A stretch of DNA of 62,350 nucleotides from a virus (taxonomy: Duplodnaviria > Caudoviricetes), in the IMG/VR virus record IMGVR_UViG_3300035190_001508, positions 1-62,350 of that record; one strand, given 5' to 3'. The notes below the pieces were generated by a model. The model was not told the origin of the DNA and searched no databases. It saw only the letters and a list, made by a program, of their open reading frames with translations. Shown here piece by piece: positions 51,495 through 51,583 of the stretch. Made by a program: the position numbers and the translations under genes. How positions within the stretch are numbered: position 1 is the first letter of the stretch; every line of letters starts with the position of its first letter.

Positions 51495-51498
51495 GTTT

Positions 51499-51583
51499 GC
51501 GTGCCCTCTGCATTGCTGGACTTGGGACCAGTACGCGGCGGCCCACACCTTGTGGGCTTGTTCCGCGCAGTTGCATTGCACGC
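51499..51583 (-). ncRNA. Twister ribozyme, P1 type
   Basis: P1 GCGUG/CACGC; C^AA; P2 UGCA/UGCA; T2 ACU/AGU; P3 GCGCGG/CCGCGU with an inserted GCCCAC/GUGGGC hairpin; P4 CUGG-UCCCAAGU-CCAG; GCAGAGGG supplying T1. Predicted cut 51578/51577. Confidence 0.85.

Follow-up and report, generated by a model that had tools for sequence, protein, structure and literature searches.

What might a twister ribozyme be doing four nucleotides in front of the first gene of a phage operon? The question is raised by a virus record of 62,350 nucleotides (nt) (Duplodnaviria; Caudoviricetes; IMG/VR record IMGVR_UViG_3300035190_001508), which we analysed over its whole length and call the window; it is 99% complete by the collection's estimate, that is, complete or nearly so. 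A sequence-only reading of one short piece of the minus strand had proposed the twister, and had suggested that its cleavage could expose the start of the gene behind it. That reading missed seven hammerhead ribozymes further along the same strand, which recast the twister's role. Eight self-cleaving ribozyme motifs lie in the early operon: gene 1 is preceded by the twister, and the other seven, all type-I hammerheads, follow downstream. The best explanation of the whole, which we judge probable from the sequence analysis, is that the eight ribozymes cut a single early transcript, reaching from promoter to terminator (51825 to 44242), into short messages.

Is the first of these elements really a twister? 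Its parts, all on the minus strand, were read from the sequence, the Rfam alignment and the predicted fold, and every P1-type element that the sequence-only reading had claimed is found at 51583..51499:

51499..51583, minus strand: twister of P1 topology with a long P3 (P3, internal loop and P3a), recognised by full-length RF03160 alignment, covariation and homologues at the same position
51583-51579 with 51503-51499, minus strand: P1, GCGUG with CACGC
C51578^A51577, minus strand: predicted cleavage step, with a second A next
51575-51572 with 51512-51509, minus strand: P2, UGCA with UGCA
A51571 and C51570, minus strand: L1
51569-51563 with 51538-51532, minus strand: P3, 7 base pairs (bp)
51558-51562 and 51539-51540, minus strand: P3 internal loop, AACAA / CG
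51557-51551 with 51547-51541, minus strand: P3a, an extra hairpin of 7 bp
51531-51528 with 51519-51516, minus strand: P4, CUGG with CCAG
51527-51520, minus strand: L4, UCCCAAGU
51508-51504, minus strand: core GAGGG
51495..51498, minus strand: AAAC linker, identical in the relatives L121 and L124; an A-run of 5-6 nt in L001-L004
51494-51492, minus strand: ATG of gene 1
51584..51603, minus strand: P0 hairpin of 7 bp, GCCCCAC / loop GAAGUA / GUGGGGC, from folds, directly adjoining P1

The five pairs of P1 are borne out; a proposed sixth, C51578-G51504, is not, as it uses N-1, which is unpaired in the Rfam model. The cleavage dinucleotide is C^A, as had been noticed, the model alignment placing the consensus U of ‘UAA’ on C51578. 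Imperfections at N-1 are described as broadly tolerated by natural twisters in a large assay (PMC11662667). Both pseudoknots are complementary in the window: T1 joins the CC of L4 to the GG of GAGGG, which is the CC/GG pairing already claimed, and T2 joins L1 to the end of L4. T2 consists of A51571-U51520 and C51570-G51521 where the Rfam consensus has G-C and C-G; the change in L1 and L4 is two-sided, so the pseudoknot is kept and the view of it as a compensatory change was right. P3 is extended by an additional hairpin, again as proposed, with an insert of 25 nt against 8 in the Rfam consensus. The AACAA/CG internal loop of this long P3 is invariant across both subclades and its flanking stems covary; the invariance suggests a putative tertiary contact or binding site. 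At the 3′ end, the element does stop 4 nt before the start codon, with AAAC at 51498-51495 and then ATG. At the other end, the sequence-only reading missed the P0 hairpin at 51603-51584. P0 is an optional twister stem, reported in 21% of annotated twisters, with P3 in 78% (PMC6154101). Two P0 pairs change on both sides between the window and L001, and a hairpin occupies this position in 5 of 7 folded twisters.

The Rfam twister-P1 model (RF03160) aligns along its full length, model positions 1-68 of 68, with E = 7.6e-7 in 501 nt searched, 9.4e-5 in the whole window against all 4227 families and 2.2e-8 in a one-genome, single-family search; a twister search of 14 control genomes at E<=0.001 gave no match (0/14). 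With this family the window shares P1, P2 and P4, the two loop-loop pseudoknots and the optional P0 and P3. Its core nucleotides all match the model (AA after the cleavage site, L4 UCCCAAG and GAGGG), the exceptions being N-1 (C for U) and L2 (CAA for UAAA). It differs from the family in that C at N-1, in T2 with A-U for G-C, in the P3 insert with its conserved AACAA loop and in the shorter L2.

Relatives carry the element in the same place. The gene-1 protein has one relative in the viral collection, L001 (79% identity), which has a twister just before its ATG (45.0 bits), and a pattern scan added L002, L003 and L004 (44.5-45.1 bits). A metagenome scan gave L121 and L124, near-identical to the window, and a separate group, L120, L122 and L123, with C^A. 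Twister homologues occupy the same position in L001-L004, L121 and L124. A looser viral pattern scan gave 16 further stretches, for 15 of which the records could be searched; 13 match the twister model (32.5-43 bits) with a U^A cleavage step, and L097 and L099 show no match to it. L102 was kept in the alignment on its sequence alone. The sole stretch from a pattern scan of genome contigs, L139, was taken as a chance match on reading alone, being coding-like with poor P2 and P4 pairing. The same subtype, with an A-U pair in T2, was seen in unrelated contigs: L108-L119 (phage records of about 99 kb), L107 (120 kb), L102 and the L120/L122/L123 group. A search for RNA runs covering the locus listed none. 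Three contig sets, probably DNA, cover the leader only and in small shares, breaking at 51579 where a relative diverges; the first letters of that relative past the break resemble a twister variant with U at N-1. Neither was used as evidence.

Does the fold leave a trace in evolution? We aligned 12 distinct sequences of the twister subtype with MAFFT and counted pairs for a hand-written structure. In these, 86.4% of cells pair, against 28.8-42.0% when the partners are slid by 1-3 columns, and 17 of the 31 pairs change on both sides. The observed pairing, the double-change cells and the covariation score were reached by none of 500 shuffles, and the number of pairs with double changes by 2 of 500. 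P1 changes on both sides in all five of its pairs (88% of cells paired) and P4 in three of its four (96% paired); in P2 a single pair of the four varies (A-U, C-G, G-C) and every cell is paired (100%). Inspection shows clean covariation of P3 and P3a among the members of the window's own clade.

The hammerheads were spotted as a repeated block before the early genes, between 50828 and 47045 on the minus strand. Their cleavage positions are predicted from the core:

50769..50828, minus strand: hammerhead 1, cleavage after C50774; RAGATH-1-hammerhead match of 24.6 bits, E 0.98, whole core aligned
50368..50428, minus strand: hammerhead 2, cleavage after C50373
49424..49484, minus strand: hammerhead 3, cleavage after C49428
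48926..48978, minus strand: hammerhead 4, cleavage after C48930
47801..47859, minus strand: hammerhead 5, cleavage after C47805
47279..47330, minus strand: hammerhead 6, cleavage after C47283; weak Hammerhead_3 match of 18 bits
47045..47106, minus strand: hammerhead 7, cleavage after C47049

All seven copies have the full core and GUC at the cleavage site, in the order CUGA(U/C)GA, helix II hairpin, CGAAAC, helix III hairpin, GUC, and in all seven helix I is open and of 4-5 bp, which is the type-I arrangement. Counting the window and its relatives, 31 distinct copies form helices I-III, and helices II and III differ in sequence and length with their pairing kept. A core search of the window found no hammerhead on the plus strand. 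Rfam support lies under the gathering cut-offs, with RAGATH-1-hammerhead (RF03152) reaching at best 24.6 bits against 56.3, in one copy, and Hammerhead_3 reaching 18.0 and 17.7 against 48.5; a whole-window Rfam scan at E<=1 lists no hammerhead.

Each copy begins inside the stop codon of an open reading frame (ORF) or at most 5 nt after it, and four of the copies provide this stop themselves, through the TGA of CUGAUGA; the TGA of gene 1 sits within the CUGAUGA box of hammerhead 1. In every copy the predicted cut falls 29-32 nt before the next ATG. The predicted 3′ cleavage products all open with GCGGAAGCCAACCAAUCCGC or something close to it, and between this and the AUG lie about 9-11 A-rich nt (window 47029-50767, minus strand; L135 8179-10370). 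Relatives that bear the twister have 6-7 such hammerheads each. The closest DNA-polymerase relative lacking a twister, G005 (70% identity), has five, with a helix I of CCAC/GUGG against CCGC/GCGG in the window; the head of its operon shows no Rfam match at E up to 5. Helix I is identical across the copies of one genome and differs between genomes. By eye, GCGG...CCGC could pair as a 5′-terminal hairpin after the hammerhead cut, which we note as an idea only. The corresponding block in G005 starts with GUGG, and CCAC follows in two of the three copies whose downstream sequence was compared.

The operon that contains these motifs occupies the minus strand from about 51825 to about 44242 and encodes about two dozen small proteins. 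Its remaining landmarks are:

51797..51825, minus strand: promoter-like site, TTGAAA-17 nt-TACACT, at the operon head, from consensus scans
51604..51793, minus strand: non-coding leader with conserved blocks at both ends, from alignments
50820..51494, minus strand: gene 1, 224 amino acids (aa), with homology to L001, L002, L004 and L124 beginning at the ATG
44242..44277, minus strand: terminator, a hairpin of 15 pairs (8 G-C) followed by a T-run (U-run in the RNA), at the operon end

The site at 51825..51797 is the only good sigma-70-like one upstream of the twister, by a consensus scan. Five loci from two subclades extend this far upstream (window, L124, L121, L001 and L004), and all of them have the -35 hexamer 243-244 nt ahead of the twister; both observations uphold the claim that the twister heads the operon. 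From this site we infer a transcription start near 51790. The same kind of scan gives a second, weaker promoter-like site near the operon end, at 44966..44938. The terminator is bidirectional and also follows a giant plus-strand ORF (31102-44238), whose 4378 aa have a DUF7178 match, a weak DUF3293 match and nothing else. Beyond the promoter, short direct repeats occur in a divergent intergenic region at 51830-52500. Two copies of a 23-nt direct repeat (51838-51860 and 51872-51894), kept in L121 and L124, stand immediately before the early promoter and may be a regulator binding site.

Elsewhere the genome encodes a family-A DNA polymerase, a helicase, a primase-like gene, a large terminase and one tRNA. 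A blastn search of 50500-52500 against named phages gave no match, and the best match of the DNA polymerase in a tblastn search against cultured phages has 27% identity and gives no host clue. Gene 1 has no Pfam or PHROG family match and no usable protein Atlas match.

Could the twister stretch simply be part of gene 1? In the window the gene-1 frame does stay open upstream to 51605, and the sequence-only reading had named a true start codon upstream as the finding that would make the element coding. The relatives contradict this: in-frame stops lie 48 nt upstream of the ATG in L124 and 99 nt upstream in L004, and protein similarity starts at the ATG. The L124 stop is inside the element, and the twister stretch is therefore not coding. 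In L121, promoter, leader, twister and AAAC-ATG are kept, and right at the ATG an additional gene of 93 aa has been inserted ahead of the gene-1 homologue. In L121 (2370-2746) both genes start with the same 13 nt, which makes a short start-codon repeat the boundary of the insertion.

How would such an operon work? The analysis shows the motifs and how they covary, where they lie relative to ORFs, that relatives conserve them and that Shine–Dalgarno (SD) sequences are lacking; what we infer is that the RNA is cleaved in vivo, where transcription starts and whether stability or translation is affected. Each ribozyme would fold and cut while the early RNA is being made, giving eight cuts. The twister cut between C51578 and A51577 would free a leader of ~212 nt that carries a 5′-triphosphate and ends in P0 plus 6 nt with a 2′,3′-cyclic phosphate, and the twister body would stay on the gene-1 mRNA because a P1-type twister opens at P1. 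The sequence-only reading had foreseen both the loss of a triphosphorylated leader and the retention of the ribozyme body, and the promoter position and the opening at P1 point the same way. The gene-1 mRNA would begin with a 5′-OH at A51577, followed by the folded twister, about 9 nt of freed single strand (CACGCAAAC) and AUG, and it would end in the body of hammerhead 1 with a cyclic phosphate. The type-I hammerheads would reverse the twister's layout: each body would form a structured 3′ end of the upstream message, and the downstream message would receive a short leader. The net outcome would be short messages with uniform ends, insulated from neighbouring sequence.

The start sites themselves are unusual. 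Among 37 taken from ORF lists, an SD-like tetramer (GGAG, GAGG, AGGA or AAGG at -20..-4) occurs at one, that of gene 1. In the -12..-1 regions, A makes up 42% and G 10%, compared with 25% and 26% over the whole genome. Together these counts suggest that the phage's host uses SD-independent initiation. We entertain, as a tentative and rather unlikely extension, that ribozyme cleavage is what makes translatable cistrons in this SD-lacking phage, by providing a 5′-OH, a small 5′ structure (the twister body, or the GCGG...CCGC hairpin that may form behind each hammerhead) and about 9-11 nt of open A-rich RNA, with ribosome loading depending on the new 5′ end. An equally tentative possibility is that segments between two cuts are rejoined into circular mRNAs; the hammerheads of one genome share helix I, and the cut segments would carry matching 5′-OH and cyclic-phosphate ends.

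A number of points weigh against the cleavage of one early transcript by eight ribozymes. The twister scores 38.1 bits, well under the RF03160 gathering score of 67.2, although that score is a curation threshold and not a structural feature. A default Rfam scan at gathering thresholds returns the tRNA only and no twister, and 18 of 18 scored phage or metagenome relatives are likewise under the cut-off (32.5-45.1 bits). The cmsearch that the sequence-only reading had put forward as a check gives a full-length match with a score short of the gathering level. Score is lost on the P3 insert (the model expects 8 nt), on C at N-1, on the T2 change (ACU for GCC in L1, GU for GC in L4) and on the short L2. 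Fold energy is weak as well: the minimum free energy (MFE) is -41.5 kcal/mol, with z -1.81, and 8 of 200 shuffles fold equally well. In the covariation analysis 149 of 500 shuffles attained the observed number of further pair types, one of the five measures; P3 is paired in only 65.5% of cells, with MAFFT misaligning it between subtypes; and since L4, T2, GAGGG and three P2 pairs were prescribed by the search patterns, these columns, both pseudoknots among them, are invariant by construction and uninformative. The transcription start is placed by a consensus match only. Whether a 5′-OH stabilises or destabilises an mRNA depends on host RNases. Finally, none of 46 DNA-polymerase relatives carries a twister (0/46), and with G005 holding five hammerheads and no twister, the twister is dispensable for such operons.

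The strong support for the twister is comparative, not thermodynamic, and comes from the alignments of relatives. We regard the identity of the motif as very nearly settled, and consider it quite likely that the twister cleaves itself in vivo.

Which other explanations fit the locus? The one that survives best, although we think it unlikely, gives the leader the leading part. The ~212-nt leader would be a functional non-coding RNA (a regulator, decoy or polymerase-modifying RNA), the twister would set its 3′ end, which P0 would protect, and any effect on gene 1 would be secondary. In its favour are the length of the leader (~190 nt to P0), kept according to the constant promoter spacing across two subclades, its conserved end blocks and the lack of a conserved ORF in it; indels between the clades are not multiples of three. 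A P1-type twister would also leave just 6 nt on the upstream product, right after a stable hairpin. The structural evidence is divided. RNAalifold finds 51 pairs in the leader, 10 of them with double changes, which form covarying hairpins, but its covariation term is unfavourable (+2.36). The window leader folds better than its shuffles (z -2.31) whereas that of L001 does no better than its own (z +0.15), the MFE architectures of the two are unlike, and single folds and alifold disagree between the clades. The leader has no Rfam family match at E up to 10 and was not found in any of four twister-less relatives searched (4/4); motif searches with its conserved ends show no other copy within the window. 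Moreover, twisters preceded by an ORF instead of a leader (L122) also have P0, so it is no pointer to a special upstream RNA.

Somewhat less likely still is the translational unmasking proposed by the sequence-only reading, in which the ribozyme fold hides the ribosome-binding region of gene 1, GAGGG serves as the SD and loss of the P1 5′ strand switches translation on. In its favour, just 4 nt separate the P1 3′ strand from the AUG, and the claimed distance of 9 nt between GAGGG and the AUG is correct. In E. coli, reporter expression rose 5-fold with an active engineered twister of P1 format that masks an SD (PMC5052635). In predictions without pseudoknots, the probability of being unpaired, P(unpaired), rises for the P1 3′ strand from 0.00 before cleavage to 0.37 after, and this is the sole region changed. 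However, in the same predictions the AUG is open before cleavage and after it (0.91 and 0.86), as are positions +3..+15 (0.80 and 0.75), so a masking switch is not needed to explain the arrangement and the proposal that P1 release exposes the initiation region is weakened. The part of the claim that made GAGGG an SD also fails: in a phage that does not use SD sequences, the only SD-like start among the 37 is the invariant twister core, and we take GAGGG to be that core. Nor is anything masked by the operon's hammerheads, whose predicted cuts fall 29-32 nt ahead of their AUGs. Unmasking may apply to other twisters. In L120, L122 and L123, where SD sequences are in use, the P1 3′ strand shares sequence with a GGAGGAG immediately ahead of the ATG, and an SD also precedes the upstream gene. 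The L122 twister sits in a 116-nt gap between two co-directional small genes.

An improbable third explanation is that the promoter-leader-twister unit and the hammerhead-plus-leader units are homology blocks for swapping small early genes by recombination, with cleavage incidental or ancestral. In its favour, the extra gene of L121 is placed exactly between twister cassette and gene-1 homologue; a near-identical twister precedes different genes in L120 and L122, and the hammerhead units of one genome share an identical helix I and a 20-nt downstream block. Yet compensatory changes keep all twister and hammerhead helices and the catalytic cores are invariant, which indicates selection on the RNA fold and not on DNA homology alone, and it is a repeat of the first 13 coding nt, not ribozyme sequence, that flanks the L121 insertion.

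A decayed or chance look-alike without cleavage, or a coding stretch, could account for the low score, the C at N-1, the short L2 and the open upstream frame in the window, but is very improbable given a core that matches everywhere except N-1, where imperfections are tolerated, a compensatory pseudoknot change and helices that covary across clades, in-frame stops upstream of the ATG in relatives and an E value of 9.4e-5 in the whole window.

We return to the cleavage of one early transcript by eight ribozymes, which has precedents. In the haloviruses HF1 and HF2, the first ORF of an early polycistronic transcript has an HHphage hammerhead 13 nt ahead of it, and a mapped 5′ end lies at most 3 nt from the cleavage site (Perreault et al. 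2011, PMC3088659). The likeness to the window is a self-cleaving ribozyme a few nt upstream of the start codon of the first early ORF; the difference is that theirs is a hammerhead in an archaeal virus and its body stays upstream, whereas here the motif is a twister and the body would stay on the mRNA, and the portion of PMC3088659 at hand describes no array of further ribozymes in these viruses. For prophages the same source reports clustered hammerheads that flank genes, proposes that long transcripts are cut to gene length and shows cleavage in vitro for three tandem arrangements (PMC3088659). Twisters and hammerheads have also been noted together near phage genes, where processing of polycistronic RNA is proposed and their role is called unresolved (PMC6765202, PMC5408937). 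The window resembles the prophage clusters in having several ribozymes within a few kb that flank single genes or short gene blocks. It differs from what is described of them in its seven hammerheads and one twister in about 4.5 kb, placed 0-5 nt from stop codons (four of them supplying the stop), with uniform AUG spacing and no SD use. In the literature searched for phage twister and hammerhead arrays, which left out subscription papers and supplements, we found neither an equally dense array nor anything closer.

RiboJ-type insulators are comparable engineered ribozyme devices of the 5′ untranslated region (UTR). Twister and hammerhead 5′-UTR devices are alike in placing a ribozyme directly upstream of a translation start, the P1 format leaving the body before the start region; their cleavage takes away the sequence upstream and can increase expression. 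They differ in acting by SD masking; the window phage has no SD there (PMC5052635). In E. coli, cleavage of the 5′ UTR alone is reported to have left both mRNA level and expression unchanged (Felletti et al. 2016, PMC5052635). A further parallel comes from RNA mycoviruses, in which hammerhead, twister or deltavirus ribozymes are conserved in 5′ UTRs by ORFs and an aid to translation initiation is proposed (PMC13725137). These are eukaryotic RNA viruses with cap-independent initiation, whereas ours is a DNA phage with bacterial-type translation; if the cistron-making idea raised above is true, it would be a bacterial-virus counterpart of this ribozyme-assisted initiation.

What, then, does the locus mean? 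The ribozyme-punctuated early operon is already known as a kind, and the window is a clear, notably clean and dense new example. It offers a clean natural case, with one promoter, one terminator and eight ribozymes set with near-nucleotide regularity against stop and start codons, in an uncultured phage with no SD use. The two ribozyme classes would be complementary, the twister body staying on the downstream RNA and the hammerhead bodies on the upstream RNA, and the arrangement yields testable predictions on mRNA ends, stability and translation. The Rfam cut-offs miss both a recurrent phage twister subtype and this type of hammerhead, and the density of ribozymes in phage genomes is therefore probably under-annotated. 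For the family to which this phage belongs, hammerhead-punctuated early operons are a habit, and the twister is a lineage-specific addition to it.

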